Origin: a virus | Strand: one strand, 5' to 3' | Length of the DNA stretch: 30,325 bases | UHGV virus genome: UHGV-0061407 | Shown here: positions 1,158 through 30,023 of the stretch, piece by piece | Numbering within the stretch: position 1 is the first letter of the stretch | Layout: each line of letters begins with the position of its first letter | The notes under the pieces: generated by a model | The model's input: only the letters and a program-made list of their open reading frames with translations | Told to the model about the DNA's origin: nothing | The model's database searches: none | Translations under genes and position numbers: made by a program

Positions 1158-1865
1158 TTAGAGAATTTTTGGGAGAGAAAACTGGCTCAGTTGCTGGCGC
1201 ATCGCCGCAATAGCCGCTTTGGTTTCGCCGTCTTCGCCCCCGGACTCACTCCGGTCAAGCAGATAGGACAGTCCGCGGGAGGCGACCGCGGCGGACTGAC
1301 TTTTCGAGAAACCTGCCTCTCGCAGGAACTTCTCAAATTCAGGTAAGGAAGGAAGATCACCGTGTGACAGCTTCGACTTAATGACGTCAATACGCGCATC
1401 ATCATTGGCCGGCACGGTAACAATGGAGATTTCAACCAGGTCGAGCTTCGTTAAGGTGCGGATCCGGGTTTTCTCATCGTAATTTGACTCACGGACGTAA
1501 TAGCCAATGGAAAGGCCTGTAATGGCACGGGTTTTCATGCCCCGCCAGGCGGTTTTCGCGTAGGCCGCGTCTTCAAGCCACAGGGCCCCTTCACCAAAAA
1601 GCCCATGTTTATCTTCTTTCAGGGTCGAGATGTCCCAGTTCCCGATGGGTTCGCCGGTGCGATGCTGCCAGAGAACCGGGAACGTTCTCCCCTTCGCCCG
1701 TGTTTCCTCGATGCTTTCGAGGAACGCACCCGGCGCCACGACTTCGTTGTAACTATCGACAACATCGAAGACAGAACCGTATCCAGAAAAAAGGCCGTCA
1801 TCGTTGACGGCCTTAATATCGAAGTTGAATGCCTTTACTTTCATGGCTGCGTTTTTCCGGTACAT
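1158..1865 (-). CDS. Prohead maturation protease, HK97 family
   Basis: 235 aa ORF between portal and capsid; sequence pattern typical of HK97-family prohead proteases; start overlaps portal stop (1841-1865). Confidence 0.85.
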   Translation of the reverse strand: MYRKNAAMKVKAFNFDIKAVNDDGLFSGYGSVFDVVDSYNEVVAPGAFLESIEETRAKGRTFPVLWQHRTGEPIGNWDISTLKEDKHGLFGEGALWLEDAAYAKTAWRGMKTRAITGLSIGYYVRESNYDEKTRIRTLTKLDLVEISIVTVPANDDARIDVIKSKLSHGDLPSLPEFEKFLREAGFSKSQSAAVASRGLSYLLDRSESGGEDGETKAAIAAMRQQLSQFSLPKIL

Positions 1866-3160
1866 TCCGGCGTCTCCTCTGATTTAATGCCAAGCCATTC
1901 CCGCAGTGCGTTTTTGGCCGATTCACTGTCGCCGGACTTGCCAAGCTGATCTATCGGCAGCAGGTTAGATTGAACGGTTAGTTGGTCAGCGCCAGGTTTT
2001 GGCTGAAGGTTTTCTTTTTGCCGTGCTTCATTGCGAGTCATCAGACCGTTCTGGGTCATCGTTGAGTAAAAAGCGGCACGGGCGGCGCTGTCGGCACGTA
2101 AGAGACCTTCGATGGAAAACTCTGCGAAGTACTTATTTCTTTCTCCCGGAGCCAGGAGGCTTTTACGAATCGCCTGCTCAATACGGGTAAGCCATGGACG
2201 AAGTGAAAACGTTAAAAAGCCAATCAGCATCTGTTCGACGCCACTTCCCCACATTGTCTGCCCCTGGGCACTGTGTCCAATCAACCCCGGCCATACTCTG
2301 AACCACCGACAAATCTCTTCGATATTGAATGCCCTGGACTGCAGCATCTGGGCGTCTTCCGGGTTGAGGTCAACTGGCTGAAACTTCATTCCCGCTTCAA
2401 GAACCATCATTTTCCCGGTATTCATAGATCCAGAAAATTGTTCAACCATGCTTTCACGTACTTCATTGCGCTGCTCTTTTTTCAGGATTTGATCCATTGA
2501 GAGAACGCCACTGGGCCGCATACCATTTTTAAAAACTTTTGCGCTGGCTTCATCTGTTGCCATTGCCAGACCAAGTGTCTGTCGGGCATAACTGACAGGT
2601 GACAGGCCCATGACACCATTGGTGCTGAACGCACGGATGTGCATGATGTCCCGTTCATTAATGTTTCGGGATGTACCTGAAGGCCAGTCACGGTAGGTAT
2701 AAATAGGATCTCCGCTGCTACTTAAATCAACCTTCATCCTTTCTGGCCTGAGCGGTACAAGCGAGGTAATACGCTTTCCGGTACGGTCGATTTCCGCGTA
2801 AGCATTCCCCCATAAAAGAAGGCTGGCCATGATCATTTCCCAGAACTCCACAGCGGTCATGTCAGCATTCGGCTGATTATGGAGGAGCTCATAAAGCGGG
2901 TGATCATTTGCACTCTGGCGACCATCAGCCGTTTTTTCGTAAAAACCTACAGGCAAAGTCGCGATGGTTTCGGATAACAGCCTTACACATGACCACACTG
3001 CCGATAACTGCAGGGCTTTATCAACCGTAACGGATTTGCCTGCTGCGGACTGCCCACCAGCATAAGCAGCCCAGAATTCACCGTCTGTAAGTGCGATGGG
3101 TACGCCGAGCCACCGGCGAACGGCGCTTTTTATCCGGCCTGGCTTCTTATCTTTATTCAT
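1841..3160 (-). CDS. Portal protein, HK97 family
   Basis: 439 aa ORF immediately downstream of terminase large subunit; size and sequence character of HK97-type portal proteins. Confidence 0.85.
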   Translation of the reverse strand: MNKDKKPGRIKSAVRRWLGVPIALTDGEFWAAYAGGQSAAGKSVTVDKALQLSAVWSCVRLLSETIATLPVGFYEKTADGRQSANDHPLYELLHNQPNADMTAVEFWEMIMASLLLWGNAYAEIDRTGKRITSLVPLRPERMKVDLSSSGDPIYTYRDWPSGTSRNINERDIMHIRAFSTNGVMGLSPVSYARQTLGLAMATDEASAKVFKNGMRPSGVLSMDQILKKEQRNEVRESMVEQFSGSMNTGKMMVLEAGMKFQPVDLNPEDAQMLQSRAFNIEEICRWFRVWPGLIGHSAQGQTMWGSGVEQMLIGFLTFSLRPWLTRIEQAIRKSLLAPGERNKYFAEFSIEGLLRADSAARAAFYSTMTQNGLMTRNEARQKENLQPKPGADQLTVQSNLLPIDQLGKSGDSESAKNALREWLGIKSEETPECTGKTQP

Positions 3161-9493: not shown

Positions 9494-9554
9494 GCCTGCA
9501 TGAAACCATGCGGGCTTTTTTTTTGCCCAAAGAAAAAGCCCACCGAAGTGGGCC
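9494..9554. terminator. Back-to-back terminator hairpins (plus-strand hairpin + T9; minus-strand hairpin ggcccac-uucg-gugggc + U5)
   Basis: Plus: stem 9494-9502/9507-9515 (one G-U), loop aaac, T-run 9516-9524. Minus: stem 9538-9543/9548-9553 with UUCG-type loop, followed by T-run (complement of 9531-9537). Confidence 0.5.
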
Positions 9555-9927
9555 TTACAGCTATCATCATTTTTTATTAGGTGTGGTGCCGGGTGCCTCC
9601 CGGTAAGTCGCCGCCAGTCCACAGACGACTCGCAATGCGCAAAAAAACATATCAGACTGGCAATGCCCCTCCGCATAGGGGGATTCACCACACGGATAAT
9701 TTAGGATGTAGTCATAGGCGGCGTCAATAACTGACACTCTGTCAAAGGCACCATTACGATGCCTTTTGCACAGTGCTAATCACTGGCTCTAATAAGGGGC
9801 CAGAGCAAAGCGATTACCCCGGCTACCAGCACTCCATCAGCCAGGATTGACATCATTTTGCTGGTGAAGTCGATAGCAACCACCAGAAACAAAAGCACCC
9901 CAGCTGCGGCCCAGCGAAGTTTACCGA

Positions 9928-10353
9928 TCACAGGTACTGGTCTAGTGGAAGTTGCAGAGCCTGGGCAATTTTCTTCAGCTGTTTCTCTTCTTCTTCCCCG
10001 ATGCCGTCGTTATCAGCTACATCAAGACACAGGCAAAGAACATCGACAGCGTCATCCGTCCCGGCAACATCAGCCAGTTCGCGCAGCGCCTGAGCGTTGG
10101 CTGAACGCGGTGATGCTTCATAGCGAGCGCGAATATTCGAACTCATCTGGGCAATTTCACCAGCAAATGGCGCGAATGCCGGGAGGGCCGAAATAGTCTT
10201 CTCCAGCACTGCAATCTCTTTTGCATCGCAGGTACCATCGGCGTATGCAATCGAGTACGCTCCCCAGACCGTGGCTTCTACGGCATCGCGGTTTTCCATT
10301 TTTTTCACTTCAACAACGGCTTTACGGGCTTTCTTTTTAAAAATACCAAACAT
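9928..10353 (-). CDS. TerB-like (tellurite-resistance TerB family) protein
   Basis: 141 aa; two repeats of the TerB-like pattern (AYADGTCDAKEIAVL and LDVADNDGIGEEEEKQLKKIAQAL) matching what I recall of TerB (a.aDG...eE...l..ia..l). Confidence 0.6.
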   Translation of the reverse strand: MFGIFKKKARKAVVEVKKMENRDAVEATVWGAYSIAYADGTCDAKEIAVLEKTISALPAFAPFAGEIAQMSSNIRARYEASPRSANAQALRELADVAGTDDAVDVLCLCLDVADNDGIGEEEEKQLKKIAQALQLPLDQYL

Positions 10354-10485
10354 AGTGACTTTCCTTTTAGCGGGTGAGCCAGCGCTCAGGAATGATCAGC
10401 CCACAGAGACAGTCACACTGACTATTCCCTATGGCTCACCCCTGAAAGGCTCTGTGGTTAAATAACGCCGAGCGTGGCGCAGATA

Positions 10486-10510
10486 CGAAAAAGGCCCGCG
10501 TATGCGAGCC
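10486..10510 (-). terminator. Terminator-like hairpin downstream of the methyltransferase gene
   Basis: 7-bp stem with one mismatch (10493-10499/10504-10510) followed on the minus strand by a T-run (complement of 10486-10491). Confidence 0.3.
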
Positions 10511-10796
10511 TGGTGGATCCGCTTACTGATACGGAGCGACCAACCTAAGTTGTCGTAGATTCAAATTGTGGCCCTGCTTTTAAGTCACTTTGCGGTCAGC
10601 TGGGACATGTAAGTTACGCATTGTGATCGGGATTCGCTTCAGACGCTGGCCCCGCAGCCATATAAGTGCCGGTTACGGTTCCGGCCAGGTCTCTTCCTCA
10701 ACAGGTTATTCTCCATACGGATTACCGTTTGTTGGTCGTTCCAGCGATCTCAATTTTCCGGTTACGTTTATCCGGCGGCTTACGCCCGGTTAAGCC

Positions 10797-11876
10797 CTAA
10801 GGTAAGGGATTTGGTTGTGGTGGCCGGTGCTCCAGCAAATTACGCATTTCACTGACCGTCTGTTCAAATCTCTCGGTTTCCAGTTCGACACCTAGCCCCC
10901 TTCGCCCGAGAAGAGCAGCCTGCTTGAGCGTTGAGCCTGATCCAAAAAAGAAATCAGCTACAACATCACCCGGGCGGCTACTCGCTGTGATTATCTGCTC
11001 CAGCATATCCGCAGGCTTTTCACATGGGTGTTTACCTGGATAAAACTGAACAGGCTTATGAGTCCAGACGTCGGTATATGGCACCGTGACTGATACGCTG
11101 AATGGTCGCCGTAAACGGTAATATTCCTGCTGGAGTTCAGAATATTTTCGGCTTAACGATTGCCAGGTGGCGACAAGCTGGTGGTGAGGTTTTCCCAGTT
11201 CGTTGCGCGAGTGCTTATCCATGGCGATTTTTTGAAACAAAGCCTGCAACTTTAAATAATCGGCTTCGTTCGGTAGCTGCCACTGACTAAGGCCAAACCA
11301 GTGGGAAACCATATTTTTCTTACCTGTGGCTTCTGCAATCTGAGCCGACGTCACGCCAAGAGATTCCCGTGCATCACGGAAGTAAGAAATTAAAGGCGTC
11401 ATGACGTGTTGCTTTAACTCATTACACTTTGCGGCATATCCATCGTCTTTGGGCCTGTATGGCCCCTGATAATGGTCGGCAAAAATGATACGCTCAGTGG
11501 CAGGGAAATAAGCGCGTAAGCTCTCCTTATTGCAGCCGTTCCATCGCCCTGATGGCTTAGCCCAGATGATATGGTTGAGCAGGTTAAACCGCTCTCTCAC
11601 CAACAGCTCAATATCCGCTGCCAGGCGGTGCCCACAGAACAGATACATGCTGCCGGCAGGTTTTAACACTCGCCAGAACTGTGCCAGACAGCTATCCAGC
11701 CAACGTAAATAGTCTTCGTCCCCCTTCCATTGGTTATCCCAGCCGTTTGGCTTCACCTTAAAATAAGGCGGATCGGTAACAATAAGATCAATGGAGTTAT
11801 CGGGTAGCGATGGGAGGTATTGCAGGCAATCAGCATTGATTAAATCAATACTGGATATTTTTACAGTATTTTTCAT
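10797..11876 (-). CDS. Orphan DNA methyltransferase, beta-class amino-MTase (N6-adenine or N4-cytosine)
   Basis: 359 aa; motif IV DPPY (LIVTDPPYF) near N-terminus and AdoMet motif I (DFFFGSGST) near C-terminus, the order typical of beta-class MTases; no adjacent restriction endonuclease ORF. Confidence 0.85.
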   Translation of the reverse strand: MKNTVKISSIDLINADCLQYLPSLPDNSIDLIVTDPPYFKVKPNGWDNQWKGDEDYLRWLDSCLAQFWRVLKPAGSMYLFCGHRLAADIELLVRERFNLLNHIIWAKPSGRWNGCNKESLRAYFPATERIIFADHYQGPYRPKDDGYAAKCNELKQHVMTPLISYFRDARESLGVTSAQIAEATGKKNMVSHWFGLSQWQLPNEADYLKLQALFQKIAMDKHSRNELGKPHHQLVATWQSLSRKYSELQQEYYRLRRPFSVSVTVPYTDVWTHKPVQFYPGKHPCEKPADMLEQIITASSRPGDVVADFFFGSGSTLKQAALLGRRGLGVELETERFEQTVSEMRNLLEHRPPQPNPLP

Positions 11877-22957: not shown

Positions 22958-23632
22958 ATGAAAACAATCCAGGAAATCAGGCGGTTAAACGCCAGAAAAT
23001 TGCGTGATGGTGTTGGCGGTAATATTTACTTCGCCAATATGATTGATCGCGAGCCGACTCAAACCAGCCGGTTCATGGGAGATGGCGCCACTAAAAACAT
23101 CGGCGATGCAATGGCAAGGCACATTGAAAAGTGTTTTGACTTACCTACTGGGTGGTTAGATCAGGAACATCAAACCACTAATGTTGCTAAAACGCCCGAT
23201 GTCTCTGATACATATAGAAATATCACCATGGTTCCGGTTATATCCTGGGTACAAGCAGGAGCATGGACCGAAGTTGGCTATGCTGAGGTTGATTTGAATA
23301 GCACTGAAAACTATCCATGCCCTGTTCCTTGTGGGCCGATGACTTATATTCTTCGTGTTATTGGCGACTCAATGATCGACGAATATCGGCCCGGTGATAT
23401 GATTTTTGTTGATCCCGAAGTTCCAGCAGTGCATGGAGATGATGTGATCGCCTTAATGCACGATTCTGGTGAGACTACATTTAAACGGTTGATTGAAGAT
23501 GCAGGACAACGCTATCTAAAAGCACTTAACTCAAACTGGCCAGAACCTTACATCAAAATCAATGGTAATTGCTCTATCATTGGTACCGTAATTTTTTCCG
23601 GTAAACCAAGACGATACCGAACGAAAACATAA
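22958..23632 (+). CDS. cI: CI-type prophage repressor with C-terminal S24 (LexA-like) autopeptidase domain
   Basis: 224 aa; N-terminal HTH region, C-terminal S24 motifs (VIGDSM serine, FKRL lysine); divergent from cro. Confidence 0.85.
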   Translation: MKTIQEIRRLNARKLRDGVGGNIYFANMIDREPTQTSRFMGDGATKNIGDAMARHIEKCFDLPTGWLDQEHQTTNVAKTPDVSDTYRNITMVPVISWVQAGAWTEVGYAEVDLNSTENYPCPVPCGPMTYILRVIGDSMIDEYRPGDMIFVDPEVPAVHGDDVIALMHDSGETTFKRLIEDAGQRYLKALNSNWPEPYIKINGNCSIIGTVIFSGKPRRYRTKT

Positions 23633-23646
23633 CAAAGACTATTAAA

Positions 23647-23667
23647 CCTGCTTCGGCGGGTTTTTTT
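23647..23667 (+). terminator. Intrinsic terminator after cI
   Basis: Hairpin cctgc-ttcg-gcggg (UUCG loop, one G-U) followed by T7 (23661-23667). Confidence 0.5.
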
Positions 23668-23671
23668 ACAC

Positions 23672-23704
23672 TTGACAATGTACCTCAACGGTACATAATG
23701 TACC
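23672..23704 (+). promoter_or_regulatory. pL-like early-left promoter with embedded operator O3
   Basis: -35 TTGACA (23672-23677), 16-nt spacer, -10 CATAAT (23694-23699); operator tgtacctcaacggtaca (23679-23695) between -35 and -10; extra half-site tgtacc 23699-23704. Confidence 0.5.
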
Positions 23705-23805
23705 TAAAAGAAACAGTGAACAGGCAGGACGCCCACGAAGTAGCCGCCCGGGGCATATGAAGACCGGGATGATTCGCTAACAGATAAACCAAATAGGAAC
23801 AGAAC

Positions 23806-24039
23806 ATGGCGAGCAAAGGCATTGAAAACCTTATAAAGGACGCATTAGCAAACGGCTGTCATGTAGTCCGTAAAGCGCATCGCTTCGAGGTAAGCAAGAA
23901 AGGCCAAAAATCAATCACTCTTATTATTTGTGAAGATGGCACAGCTTACCGCGGAGATATTGACCTAACGATCGCCATAGCCATTCGCACTCAAAAAGAA
24001 ATGCGTAGCGTCCTCGGCCTGCCGGCTAAGGCAATTTAA
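23806..24039 (+). CDS. Hypothetical protein, first gene of early-left operon
   Basis: 77 aa, AGGA RBS; no Arg-rich N-like motif; function unknown. Confidence 0.5.
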   Translation: MASKGIENLIKDALANGCHVVRKAHRFEVSKKGQKSITLIICEDGTAYRGDIDLTIAIAIRTQKEMRSVLGLPAKAI

Positions 24040-24049
24040 TTACCTCAGG

Positions 24050-25130
24050 TGTCTTCGGGAGGGGTTACGGAGCTGGATTGACCACCAGCAACAGAAACTC
24101 ACCCGACATACAGCAGCCGTTTAGCCCACGGCGTCGGGGGTCCAGTAGACCTGGATTAATACTGTAGGGGTTGTGCCGGTTGGTCGCCGGCGCCCCGCCC
24201 GAAGATTCCTGATCGAACATGGCGAAAGCCGACAGCGTTGAAGGCGATTTTCTCGGTTTGCGCGCTAAACAATAGCGGGGGTGAAATCGGGGCGGAGAAG
24301 CAGAATCCGCGATGTCGGGACTTGATACTTCCGGCCATACCAACAAGCCGAATGATCGCGTAACGATCCTTTGCATCTGCCCCGGCGAGGTGGCGCCGCC
24401 GGACCGGGGTAGATGAATCGTACACAACATGAAAGCGCATTCCATCTTCATCCGTCGTGGGGACTGGTTTGTAACTGAAGGAGTGCGCTTCCAGTTGTGA
24501 ACGGCAATATTCACGACCGTTGTATGGCACATGCAGCGTTAGCAGCCCGGATGGTTCCCTTGAAGTTCCATGCGCTATCCGGACAACTGGAATGTGCAAG
24601 CTAAGTGTTTCAGGCACGACGTGCGCCCCACCAGCGCGGCGAAAAGGTGTGACCCCGGGAAGAGTCCGGGAAACAACAGGTAAGAGCACTCCCGCCACAC
24701 GAGGCTGAAACCCAAGCGCCATGTGGATGCGCCGAAAAGCTACAACGGGGCGTTGGTAGAAGATCGGAGTGCTCTTTCCGTTGTGGTAATTGCGGCTATG
24801 CGCACGTGACGAGCCAAACCCGTTCAATGAATGCGTTTCCGGGAAGTGTACGTCGCCGGTTATGGCTTAACCCGGCAGGTGGAGGCACCACCGCCACAAC
24901 CTAGTTAACTGTGCTGTGTGTAGTCTTGGCGGTTATCCAGTTTTCCACTATCCAAAGGAGGAAGAGGATAACGTTCTGATGGATAACCGCCCTTTTTACA
25001 CAATACACAAGAGCATCACCGGGCGACGGGCTCATTACCCAATCCACCCGGGCGGCGTCCTAACCGCAGGTGCTCTTCTGTGTTGTGTACGGAGAAATTC
25101 CCGGCGGTGGCAGCCGCCTTTCGAGAGGGT
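24050..25130. other. GC-rich, ORF-poor island with long-range perfect inverted repeats (candidate structured RNA or decayed gene)
   Basis: About 62-65% GC on sampled 60-nt lines versus about 45-52% in flanks; no convincing ORF on the operon strand; 10-bp and 12-bp perfect inverted repeats (see findings). Confidence 0.4.
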
Positions 25131-25136
25131 AAAACC

Positions 25137-25508
25137 ATGAGTAATGATCGCATGACAGTAGTGCCCGATTTCCTGGGTGAACTGGACGCCGGCGTATTCA
25201 TGAACAAGATTGCGGCGGCTCTTAATACCACCGCGCTCGGCGTTCTGAACAACGGCAACAAAGGCAAGGTTGTCCTCACCTTTGATTTTGAGCGTATGGG
25301 CAACTCTGTTGAAGAGAAGCGCGTCAAGATTAAGCACAAGCTGAACTACAGCACCCCAACTCCCCGCGGCAAAGCGTCGGAAGAGGACACCACCGAAACA
25401 CCAATGTGGGTTAACAAAGGCGGCAAGCTCACAATCCTGCAAGAGGATCAGGGGCAACTCTTCGGTATCACCGGCGCGGTGGACGGAAAGCTTAAAGCGG
25501 CTCAGTGA
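25137..25508 (+). CDS. Hypothetical protein, YfdP-like by size and position (unverified)
   Basis: 123 aa from ATG 25137 (RBS GAGAGGG); precedes the YfdQ-like and YfdR-like ORFs as in CPS-53-type prophages (from memory). Confidence 0.5.
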   Translation: MSNDRMTVVPDFLGELDAGVFMNKIAAALNTTALGVLNNGNKGKVVLTFDFERMGNSVEEKRVKIKHKLNYSTPTPRGKASEEDTTETPMWVNKGGKLTILQEDQGQLFGITGAVDGKLKAAQ

Positions 25509-25564
25509 ACCGCACGTACAAATTCACTGATACCACTTCGCTAATCAGTTAATAAGGAATTTTT

Positions 25565-26392
25565 ATGTCTCAGTTAGACAGCGGTACTTTTCAGCAGGTT
25601 AAAGATCTGGTTCTTTCCGGTTATCACCTGAACGATATCCACGGCCTGGCCTGTCCGACCGCCCTGCTACCGCAGAATACCAGCGTTGAAAGCCTGGAGC
25701 GTTTTGCTCTTGAGCGTTTCCGTTTCCGCGGTGCCATGGACACGACCAGCATTGATGATTTCGTTCGCTATTCTGTCGCTTATGCCCGGGAAGAAGAAAA
25801 AGCACGTTGCTTTATTGATGCCGATAACATGCTGGCTCGTTCTATCTTCAATATCGGTACGTTGGACAACCTAGGCCACGCTGATAACGTCGCCTCGATC
25901 AAGCTTAAGAAGACAGCGCCCTTCCGCGCGTTACTGGCGATCAACGGCGATCACCTTAATCAGAAGCAAATAGCCGAATGGCTCGAAGACTGGAGTGACT
26001 ATCTCACTGCGTTCGATTCCGACGGTCAGACAATGAAAAATGCACAGGCAGCGCAGGCGGTTCGCCGTGTCACTATCCAGCAAACTAATGCCGCCGATCA
26101 TGAAGACGGTGATTTCAGCGGCAAAAAATCGCTGATGCAAAGTATCGAAGCCAGCAGTAAAGATGTTATGCCGGTCGCGTTTGAGTTTAAGTGTGTACCC
26201 TATGAAGGCCTGGGCGAACGTCGTTTCAGTCTTCGCAATAGCCTGCTCAAAAGTAGCGATCCGGTATTCGTTCTGCGTATTGTCCAGCTGGAAGCCCAGG
26301 AAGAAGCGATCGCCAATGAGTTCCGAGATCTGCTGATTGGCAAGTTCGACGGCAAGCCGGTAGAAACCTTTATCGGCAACTTCAAAGCCTGA
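25565..26392 (+). CDS. Hypothetical protein, YfdQ-like (DUF2303-type) by size and synteny (unverified)
   Basis: 275 aa ORF; assignment by length and neighbourhood, not by recognised motif. Confidence 0.5.
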   Translation: MSQLDSGTFQQVKDLVLSGYHLNDIHGLACPTALLPQNTSVESLERFALERFRFRGAMDTTSIDDFVRYSVAYAREEEKARCFIDADNMLARSIFNIGTLDNLGHADNVASIKLKKTAPFRALLAINGDHLNQKQIAEWLEDWSDYLTAFDSDGQTMKNAQAAQAVRRVTIQQTNAADHEDGDFSGKKSLMQSIEASSKDVMPVAFEFKCVPYEGLGERRFSLRNSLLKSSDPVFVLRIVQLEAQEEAIANEFRDLLIGKFDGKPVETFIGNFKA

Positions 26393-28982: not shown

Positions 28983-30023
28983 ATGACCAAATCAACCATA
29001 ACCAGAGAGCGCCTGCAGGAAATCGCCGAAGATGGTTTCCTGAAGCATGGCGAAAGCAAAGAGCTAGCGCGTATGGCGCTGGCCGCAATGGACAGCGAGC
29101 CGGTGGCGTACACCGACGAACGCAACCTGGGCTATATCGACCGAGGGAGGGAGACGGCATATCTGTGGGGCAAGCAGAACTCAGAGGCGGGAGATGTACC
29201 GCTCTATCGCCACACGCTGCCAGCGCCAGAACGCGACCGAGTACGCTGCGAGCATGCCGAGTGGTCACAATCAACATTCGGTAATGTTGGCCCGATTGGC
29301 CCGCTGAAGCATCTCAGCAAAGAAGCACTGGAAGCCGCTGCCGATCCTAGCGACCTGTCGGAATGGGCCGATATGCAATTCCTACTGTGGGACGCCCAGC
29401 GACGGGCTGGTATTACAGACGAGCAGATTACCCAGGCGATGATCGAAAAACTGGCGGTGAACAAGCAACGCGAATGGCCTGAGCCGAAAGACGGTGAGCC
29501 GCGGTTGCACATTAAAGATCAGCCATCGGCGGTAGGGCCAGTAACAGATGCTATGGCTTACGCATTCCATCATGCGCTAACCGATGGCCCCTTGGGTGAT
29601 GACGATGTGGAGGATATTAAGACCGGATTGCGAGCAGCTTTCGCTACTGTAACCCTCAATCAGCCAGCGCCGGTAGTGCTTACATTTGAGGAATGGTGTA
29701 AGAGAACCGGCCAGAAACCTCAAGGTTGGGTGTGTGACGCCATGAAAGAAGCCTATGAAGGCGCCAACTCTCCGGTAATCCCGGATGGTTACGTGATGGT
29801 ACCAATGAGGCTTACCGCTGAGAACGGTGCAAAGGGCGCGCTATCTGGTGAATTTTCAGAAACACAGTTTGTAAACTGCCCGGAGTGTTTTGGTGATGAT
29901 GAATGCGAAACCTGCGACGGCAGCGGCAGAGTTGAAATAAAAGTGCCTGTCAGTTGGACGACTATCAAAGCAATTTGGGTTAAAGGTGTCGAGCATTTTG
30001 CAACCACCATTACCGAAGAATAA
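28983..30023 (+). CDS. DUF550-like (MazG-like dATP/dGTP pyrophosphohydrolase domain) protein with C-terminal Cys-rich region
   Basis: 346 aa; central region (WSQSTFGNVGPIGPLKHLSKEALE...LLWDAQRRAGITDEQI...REWPEP) resembles phage DUF550; C-terminal CPECFGDDECETCDGSG zinc-ribbon-like. Confidence 0.5.
   Translation: MTKSTITRERLQEIAEDGFLKHGESKELARMALAAMDSEPVAYTDERNLGYIDRGRETAYLWGKQNSEAGDVPLYRHTLPAPERDRVRCEHAEWSQSTFGNVGPIGPLKHLSKEALEAAADPSDLSEWADMQFLLWDAQRRAGITDEQITQAMIEKLAVNKQREWPEPKDGEPRLHIKDQPSAVGPVTDAMAYAFHHALTDGPLGDDDVEDIKTGLRAAFATVTLNQPAPVVLTFEEWCKRTGQKPQGWVCDAMKEAYEGANSPVIPDGYVMVPMRLTAENGAKGALSGEFSETQFVNCPECFGDDECETCDGSGRVEIKVPVSWTTIKAIWVKGVEHFATTITEE

Follow-up and report, generated by a model that had tools for sequence, protein, structure and literature searches.

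The virus genome UHGV-0061407, a stretch of 30,325 nucleotides (nt) that was analysed whole and is called the window here, is part of a lambdoid, ST64B-like prophage. Its early-left operon contains a gap (24040-25136, + strand) bounded by the stop codon of an open reading frame (ORF) of 77 amino acids (aa) and the ATG of a YfdP-like gene at 25137. The original prediction described this gap as an island rich in guanine and cytosine (GC) with long perfect inverted repeats, and read it as a large structured RNA or long regulatory leader, with a decayed cargo gene as the alternative. The gap is a mosaic of about eight independent modules, not one RNA. Given with their folding z-scores where these apply, the modules are as follows.

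24045-24212, + strand: B, a domain closed by a stem of about 18-20 base pairs (bp) (24045-24064 / 24193-24212)
24215-24422, + strand: C, a structured domain closed by a long stem
24424-24498, + strand: Ha, a hairpin of the H family with arms ACAACATGAAAGCGCATTCC / GGAGTGCGCTTCCAGTTGT, z = -4.7
24500-24671, + strand: D2, a structured RNA of about 170 nt that belongs to no Rfam family
24673-24784, + strand: Hb, an H hairpin that holds the agagcactcc repeat and whose 3' arm overlaps the 5' strand of the E closing stem, z = -3.5
24780-24900, + strand: E, an STnc100/PasD-like cloverleaf in its predicted minimum-energy fold
24901-24997, + strand: T, a seed and an intrinsic terminator in a DicF-like layout
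25000-25086, + strand: Hc, an H hairpin 2 nt past the terminator T-run and the last element before the yfdP ribosome-binding region, z = -7.5

Coding potential, promoter and leader

The absence of a credible ORF on the operon strand holds: the longest candidates encode 74 aa (GTG start) and 62 aa (TTG start), and searches against Pfam and PHROGs return no match for any ORF of the gap on either strand. Codon phase was examined with variable sites over all homologues in hand, a test that is independent of frame and strand. The gap has 139/164/163 variable sites in the three phases (p = 0.28) with no periodicity, and indels of 1 nt and 2 nt are common. By the same measure yfdP has 15/9/95 (p = 6e-26) and the yfdQ-like gene 107/76/257. 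A decayed or mis-called cargo gene, such as the 223-aa minus-strand ORF at 24156-24827, would account for the long ORFs of that strand (223 and 155 aa), which are also what GC-rich sequence is expected to contain. The evenness of the phases rules out every frame on both strands, indels of 1 nt and 2 nt are frequent, and module boundaries cut through the ORFs; this alternative is thereby disposed of and retains a negligible probability.

Two further compositional claims fare less well. A possible 53-codon leader ORF overlapping yfdP was proposed; it is unsupported and not conserved, being absent (0-5 codons) in 14 of 58 architectures, including ST64B, Flotzy and phiNP, and in the other architectures its length is 24, 53, 82, 104 or 119 codons; the 58 are those found upstream of a YfdP that is 98-100% identical. 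GC enrichment is present (56.3% in the gap, against 44.5% upstream, 51.0% downstream and 51.1% in the window), although not at 62-65% throughout, as 60-nt lines range from 43 to 63%.

The surroundings of the gap place it in a repressed operon.

22958-23632: cI-like repressor gene (phrog_4)
about 23646-23668: cI terminator hairpin and T-run
23672-23699, + strand: PL-type promoter, TTGACA-16-CATAAT, near consensus
23679-23695: OL operator, a 17-bp palindrome TGTACCTCAACGGTACA that overlaps PL
23712-23782, + strand: leader module A, 71 nt, at the 5' end of the early-left transcript
23806-24039, + strand: 77-aa ORF, an optional protein cassette (phrog_12911), variable sites by phase 3/2/15
25103-25118, + strand: small hairpin GGCGGUGGCAGCCGCC, kept in all architectures
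25123-25129, + strand: Shine-Dalgarno-like GAGAGGG ahead of the yfdP ATG
from 25137: YfdP-like gene (phrog_204), then a DUF2303/YfdQ-like gene (phrog_210)

The operator sequence has four matches in the window, against 0.48 expected, and recurs twice between divergent cro-like and cI genes. The CI-like gene, its terminator and a PL overlapped by this recurring operator together indicate a repressor-controlled PL, so that the label "early-left operon" was right, with promoter and operator upstream of the gap. No internal promoter-like site was found in the gap. Elsewhere in the window, a 346-aa ORF is present at 28983-30023.

Leader A has a core of about 62 nt, AGCGAACAGGCAGGACGCCCACGAAGUAGCCGCCCGGGGCAUAUGAAGACCGGGAUGAUUCGC, that is almost invariant among 71 variants and in 64 phage records, where it stands behind differing operator and immunity sequences. 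Phages with this core include SfV, SfII, SfIV, mEp237, mEp460, ZF40 and Yersinia YeP1. One hairpin covaries among the 71 variants (CCCGG/CCGGG versus CCGGU/ACCGG), and no known family matches. Leader A is a candidate cis-acting RNA, possibly with a role in antitermination. The HK022 put site lies shortly after PL and forms an RNA of about 70 nt and two stems, in which A3GACG7 pairs with C15GUCU19 and a -10-like NANNAT spans +23 to +28 (PMC9378689). Leader A agrees with put in place and size; a put-like reading finds no support in the published sequence features, none of which is seen in it by eye.

Independent assortment of the RNA modules

Both inverted repeats noted in the original prediction are confirmed. 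The 10-bp repeat agagcactcc/ggagtgctct (24683-24692 / 24766-24775) lies at the centre of a longer pair of 14-nt arms that match at 93% (24679-24692 / 24766-24779), and the 12-bp repeat ggcggttatcca/tggataaccgcc (24928-24939 / 24980-24991) is followed by CTTTTT. Counted within 120 nt, perfect inverted pairs of 10-mers number 6 in the gap; in 1000 dinucleotide shuffles they average 0.146 and never reach 6, and a 12-mer inverted pair turns up in 8 of the 1000. The two repeats belong to two unrelated elements, the processing hairpin Hb and the terminator of T.

Relatives were compared by BLAST among phages, E. coli genomes and 80 viral contigs reached through YfdP. The whole gap is common only to a few near-identical prophages, and elsewhere its pieces match separately; across the 58 architectures, leader and ATG lie anywhere from 333 to 1791 nt apart. 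The folding of the 1.1 kb into nested stem-closed domains (-458 kcal/mol), its place behind the promoter and ahead of the first early gene that is conserved, and the extreme conservation of leader A could suggest one large structured RNA, or a single long cis-regulatory leader acting as a unit. Such a unit is highly unlikely, as its parts are present, absent or swapped independently in the 58 architectures with that variable spacing, and lone modules turn up in unrelated surroundings, namely structural regions of Uetakevirus, tRNA arrays of P1-like plasmids and the Qin dicBF operon. Moreover, an intrinsic terminator lies inside the block and no Rfam large-RNA family matches it. Large RNAs of the GOLLD, ROOL or OLE type are likewise no fit, there being no Rfam match and independent assortment of the domains. 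What stands of the structured-RNA interpretation is a non-coding segment downstream of PL that is rich in conserved RNA structure; the single large RNA or long leader does not.

Rfam was searched at gathering thresholds for the whole window and at E <= 10 for 23600-25600. This check, which had been proposed for the gap, returned only two matches, a late-region STnc100 and a weak one to DicF. Group I and II introns, ribozymes, and retron- or CRISPR-like RNAs were also considered and rejected (no Rfam match, no reverse transcriptase or Cas genes, no tandem repeats).

Modules B, C and D2 have conserved folds. B contains 41 consensus pairs, 5 of them with compensatory changes in a small alignment, and at one related locus (L010) its arms enclose an unrelated interior. 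ST64B and many relatives are without the 77-aa ORF, and there leader A joins B directly (junction 23782|24046). C contains 58 consensus pairs, 6 with compensatory changes, again in a small alignment; homologues of 76% identity occur in Citrobacter phage phiNP and at L017, and other relatives lack C precisely (junction 24219|24422). D2 contains 33 consensus pairs, 11 of them with compensatory changes in 8 divergent sequences; the blocks UAUGGCACAUG, CCGGAAUGUGCAAG, CACCA and GGUGUGAC are conserved, and some single-stranded blocks are invariant. It is also found in a P1-like E. coli plasmid, in phage SopranoGao and in Uetakevirus phages of Klebsiella and Enterobacter. Within Ha, the 3' arm UUCCAGUUGU (24489-24498) is perfectly complementary to ACAACUGGAA in D2 (24583-24592), a possible alternative pairing that is not conserved in the Uetakevirus D2 copies.

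Module E is predicted to fold with a closing stem of 8 bp (GTTGTGG/CCACAAC), a linker of 3 nt and a 4-bp hairpin at the 5' side; a long central arm and an extra arm follow, and the 3' hairpin (GGUGG-AGGCA-CCACC) has 5 bp. With the terminator that follows, this fits the STnc100/PasD architecture, in which a stem of 7-8 bp closes the core, a 5' hairpin stands 2-3 nt further on, and a 3' hairpin with an AGGCA loop is succeeded by a linker and a terminator. MAFFT misaligned the 3' hairpin across E subtypes, and the Rfam STnc100 model was used on intermediate forms instead. This model, whose gathering threshold is 47 bits (RF02076), gives 35.1 bits (E = 2e-4) for the ST64B element in the E slot, 34.4 for that of Qin and 39.4 for the P1-like plasmid copy. 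The motif blocks GTGGTRAAT-GCGGCT..GCGC and GGAGGCACC are common to E and to the ST64B, Qin and plasmid elements, and the closing stem covaries; the shared blocks and this covariation tie these elements together. STnc100 and PasD have been grouped in a 2026 preprint as prophage small RNAs (sRNAs) of common origin, with target sets for PasD from RIL-seq (RNA interaction by ligation and sequencing) (10.64898/2026.05.13.724894).

A true STnc100 lies in the late region of the window (9525-9722, 99.8 bits). This explains the similarity to motifs of the lambdoid region from Q to S (tR'-S) that the original prediction mentioned, a similarity borne out by the relation of E to STnc100. The late operon has a non-coding gap of its own, of about 440 nt (10354-10797, - strand), flanked by a TerB-like moron (9931-10353) and a DNA methyltransferase gene (10800-11876). 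Within this gap lies a module in common with the transfer RNA (tRNA) array of plasmid pE2863-2 (L006, about 740-845), and the STnc100 follows; this phage thus has RNA cassettes in both its early and its late leaders. ST64B (L001) carries at 1678-1866 (- strand) a P1-type C4 antisense RNA (79.7 bits) and isrK (64.3 bits) by Rfam, beside the antirepressor-like sb41, and no counterpart of C4 or isrK exceeds the Rfam threshold in the window.

Several relatives link the modules to tRNA genes. Plasmid pE2863-2 (NZ_AP018804.1; L006, 400-2300) has a tRNA array (Arg, Thr, a Sec-like "tRNA-OTHER" and Ile) interleaved with 4-5 H hairpins, D2 and two E-type modules, immediately upstream of the Thoeris anti-defence gene Tad2. 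Uetakevirus phages (L088-L090 and L092, about 1460-2050) have, between structural genes and terminase, a strong promoter followed by Ha, D2, an H hairpin, a cargo slot and a DicF-like sRNA, in a stretch left unannotated or called small hypothetical proteins. Two of the phages have an E-type module in the slot, whereas Klebsiella phage ST512-KPC3phi13.3 has a real tRNA-Arg there. Other cargoes keep the acceptor-like stem of E, GTTGTGG/CCACAAC, together with canonical D and T arms and large inserts. At L077 (2388-2513), a tRNA-like element within an enlarged segment at the Hb position passes the gathering threshold of the Rfam tRNA model with 40 bits but is not called by ARAGORN. A 68-nt insert replaces its anticodon arm, and its acceptor stem, UGUGGUG/CACCACA, is the same as the stem that closes STnc100. 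From this graded series, rather than from demonstrated descent, we infer that RNAs of the E/STnc100 type are tRNA-derived scaffolds.

A degenerating tRNA-gene array, its remnants without present function, is one way to read the same series. The cloverleaf fold of E, the relatives that retain D and T arms on its stem, the L077 element, the T-arm-like GGTTCGATTCC hairpins in some H loops and the real tRNAs that fill the same slot in other phages all lend it some credit. It is nonetheless improbable. Searched with ARAGORN for tRNA and transfer-messenger RNA, neither the window nor any of 50 related loci gives a match, and the Rfam tRNA model likewise gives none in the window. E itself differs from a tRNA in its T-like loop of 5 nt (AGGCA) rather than 7 nt, and it lacks both an anticodon arm and a CCA end. 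Selection is implied by the compensatory substitutions and by single-stranded blocks that stay conserved between distant phages, and two relatives of the E type, STnc100 and PasD, have been described as prophage sRNAs, PasD with reported RIL-seq targets.

Module T consists of a single-stranded seed, UGCUGUGUGUAGUCUU (about 24911-24926), conserved across variants with differing terminator stems, and of the terminator GGCGGUUAUCCA...UGGAUAACCGCC with CUUUUU (hairpin and U-run 24927-24997), which is the second repeat of the original prediction. A seed followed by an intrinsic terminator is the usual layout of a base-pairing sRNA, and T is a putative member of this kind by its sequence. Like DicF, it lies in an early-left-type repressed operon and ends in a Rho-independent terminator; it lacks the ftsZ-pairing seed and remains below the 48-bit gathering threshold of the DicF model (RF00039). 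On that model DicF of E. coli K-12, the control, scores 76.7 bits and the L048 variant of T 29.9 bits.

The H hairpins and the Qin dicBF locus

Ha, Hb and Hc belong to a family with stems of about 20 bp of the form ACAAC-n3-4-AAGnGCA / TGCnCTT-n3-4-GTTGT and with unrelated loops of 30-75 nt. All three fall within the arm definition of a dicBF-type hairpin class, a class defined in this analysis. Folding z-scores of the hairpins range from -3.3 to -7.5. In a set of 36 distinct arm pairs from many phages, the share of cells that pair is 90.6%, where shuffling gives 68.6% (0/500), and 16 of the 20 arm positions have double-sided compensatory changes, giving arm variants such as AAGAGCA/TGCTCTT, AAGCGCA/TGCGCTT, AAGGGCA/TGCCCTT and GAGAACA/TGTTCTC. 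A boxA reading of TGCTCTT in the 3' arms was considered and is unsupported, as the position covaries with its pairing partner. In a scan of viral contigs, whose counts are lower bounds, the H pattern occurs in at least 120 contigs and at least 85 distinct sequences. Among the matches listed, the 3' arm leads directly into one of five elements: a module of the E type, D2, a DicF precursor as in Qin, a tRNA-like RNA or a genuine tRNA-Arg(UCU). At least 10 tRNA-Arg(UCU) genes in those matches begin 1-2 nt inside the arm.

The function of these stems is suggested by the Qin prophage of E. coli K-12, in which the gap between ydfC and dicB (L087) is 567 nt of non-coding sequence with the same design as the gap in the window. 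Its elements on L087 are these.

2175-2258: Ha-type hairpin, 3' arm 2239-2258
2383-2435: DicF, preceded by a structured stretch
2443-2463 / about 2575-2595: 21-bp closing stem of an E-like cloverleaf just before dicB

Ha is the closest homologue of the Qin hairpin upstream of dicF. The 190-nt DicF species has a 5' end made by RNase III, and the 53-nt species is made by RNase E (10.1101/2023.04.14.536235); the 72-nt species has a 3' end made by RNase III, and the DicF 5' seed UUUCUGGUGA pairs with ftsZ (PMC5069750). By arithmetic from the published sizes, the 5' end of the 190-nt species maps to L087 2246-2251, within the 3' arm of the hairpin, and the 3' end of the 72-nt species to 2454, within the 5' strand of the E-like closing stem. 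Because both ends fall in such stems, the two kinds of long stem in the window correspond to RNase III sites that are cut in the studied, homologous Qin system.

Conserved arms also serve as joints where genomes recombine. Homology breakpoints fall in stem arms at 75 of 123 internal endpoints, not all of which are independent events, although the arms make up 17.5% of the sequence (p = 9e-27). In an H hairpin at the Hc position, L071 (2842-2950) differs from L075 and L086 by inversion of the loop between identical arms, 71/71 as the reverse complement. We regard the loop inversion and the arm exchange as driven by homology or template switching at repeated conserved sequences.

These observations raise the question of whether the arms are primarily DNA-level recombination sites, akin to integron attC or another cassette exchange, with RNA structure secondary. 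The boxes of attC, R''/R', are RYYYAAC/GTTRRRY, and an attC site is further marked by extrahelical bases and a linked IntI integrase. The ACAAC...GTTGT base of the H stems resembles these boxes; the hairpins, at 75-130 nt, are attC-like in size. The concentration of breakpoints in the arms, the natural perfect inversion between L075 and L071, and a cargo that includes an optional ORF, tRNAs and sRNAs are all in keeping with such sites. Against this, the motif departs from the attC consensus, the arm base ACACAAC/GTTGTGR agreeing with the boxes in part. The orientation of the elements is always that of the transcription unit, its terminators and tRNAs, and the published RNase III cuts map to the homologous stems in Qin. 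Furthermore, ordinary homologous recombination between phages should lead to exchange at conserved repeats of 20 nt, and template switching at any inverted repeat can yield a single inversion. A primary role in DNA is accordingly unlikely, and DNA-level exchange is compatible with an RNA-processing role as a side effect.

Proposed pathway and known systems

We assign a probability of roughly 0.72 to the explanation that the segment is a cluster of operon-embedded small RNAs of the dicF-locus type, released from the early-left transcript by RNase III. The non-coding status of the gap, its promoter and operator context, its conserved structure, its modularity and its homology to Qin dicF and STnc100-like elements are shown by the sequence analysis. 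What we infer beyond these is that the transcript is cut in this phage, that its RNAs are stable and have targets, and by what means T is read through.

In the proposed pathway, departure of the CI-like repressor from OL would allow transcription from PL through leader A, the 77-aa ORF, B, C, Ha, D2, Hb, E and T. Many transcripts would end at the T terminator (about 24997), and read-through would continue via Hc into yfdP. RNase III would cut the H hairpins of about 20 bp, and probably the closing stem of B too, freeing D2 from between Ha and Hb as well as an E+T RNA of about 215 nt, the presumed counterpart of the 190-nt DicF precursor and of STnc100. RNase E may trim E+T to a short seed-terminator sRNA, which probably base-pairs with host or phage mRNAs through UGCUGUGUGUAGUCUU, and Hc would separate this sRNA from the yfdP mRNA. 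Cleavage by RNase P at the acceptor-like stem of E is possible. The recurrent stem arms would double as recombination joints for module exchange, because the same arms recur in many phages.

Several points weigh against this cluster of processed sRNAs. The DicF model scores 16.5 bits (E = 2.3) on 24915-24992, under its threshold, and the STnc100 model has no match in 24780-24997 at E <= 10, so its threshold too is unmet. The assignment to RNase III is drawn from homology to Qin and from arithmetic on published fragment lengths, not from a read map. Wobble asymmetry in the H arms favours the + strand by only about 2:1 (42 versus 21), and folding energy has no strand preference, both strands being about equal. 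The covariation sets comprise 5-14 phylogenetically related sequences. No N-like gene and no recognisable nut or put site for read-through of T was found. Some modules could be decaying remnants that are carried along, and D2, B and C are without known function.

A broader pattern can be suggested tentatively, with rather less than even confidence: mobile arrays of RNA cassettes in unrelated enterobacterial phages (ST64B-like lambdoids, Qin, P1-like plasmid-prophages, Uetakevirus and Lastavirus), in which H hairpins would be both RNase III punctuation and joints for exchange and inversion, the cargo being genuine tRNAs, tRNA-derived cloverleaf RNAs of the STnc100/PasD type, D2 and DicF-like sRNAs. 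DicF, STnc100 and PasD might then be parts of one tRNA-derived, hairpin-delimited system. This general principle was not found in the literature searched, although a 1994 study of dicF-like prophage sequences may cover part of it. It would offer a common frame for prophage sRNAs so far studied singly (DicF, STnc100, PasD), with scaffolds and processing hairpins in common that travel as cassettes, and it would account for the hundreds of unannotated bases upstream of yfdP-type genes. New stable RNAs are predicted at prophage induction, namely D2, B, C and E+T. The occurrence of sRNA cargo in tRNA arrays beside anti-defence genes raises the possibility that some of these RNAs have roles in host takeover or counter-defence, and the H hairpins could provide a natural set of RNase III "insulators" for synthetic operon design.

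Among known systems, punctuation of polycistronic RNAs by RNase III is familiar from the T7 early region and from the processing stems of ribosomal RNA operons. The H hairpins resemble these in having stems of about 20 bp with small internal mismatches between units of one transcript. They differ in that each hairpin joins two neighbouring cargoes, its arms being the 3' flank of the first and the 5' flank of the second, in a cargo that is mostly non-coding, and in the mobility of the family among unrelated phage genomes.

Integron attC sites and clusters of attC sites lacking integron integrases (CALIN) have imperfect hairpins of 60-140 nt with an AAC...GTT base, a variable centre and interchangeable cassettes, a resemblance only, as the consensus differs and the evidence here is for an RNA-level role. 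The phage tRNA arrays of P1-like plasmids, Uetakevirus and Stx phages interleave H hairpins and D2/E with real tRNAs, and E has a cloverleaf topology; the window differs in having no functional tRNA. STnc100 and PasD share with E the multibranch core, closing stem, 5' hairpin, AGGCA-loop 3' hairpin, linker and terminator. In the window, by contrast, E stands in the early-left operon, not downstream of Q, and the central arms are unrelated in sequence.

The closest parallel is Qin dicBF, likewise an early-left-type operon repressed by a prophage repressor (DicA, the CI analogue in Qin) and likewise equipped with a non-coding stretch that contains an Ha-type hairpin, an sRNA with a GGCGG...CCGCC+U terminator and an STnc100-like module. 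The window has about twice the RNA cargo, B, C and D2 being absent from Qin, and three H hairpins rather than one. The order is E then sRNA in the window, as opposed to sRNA then E in Qin, and the seed is UGCUGUGUGUAGUCUU, not UUUCUGGUGA. A DicF-type cluster of operon-embedded sRNAs is thus already known, and the locus in the window is an expanded variant of it.

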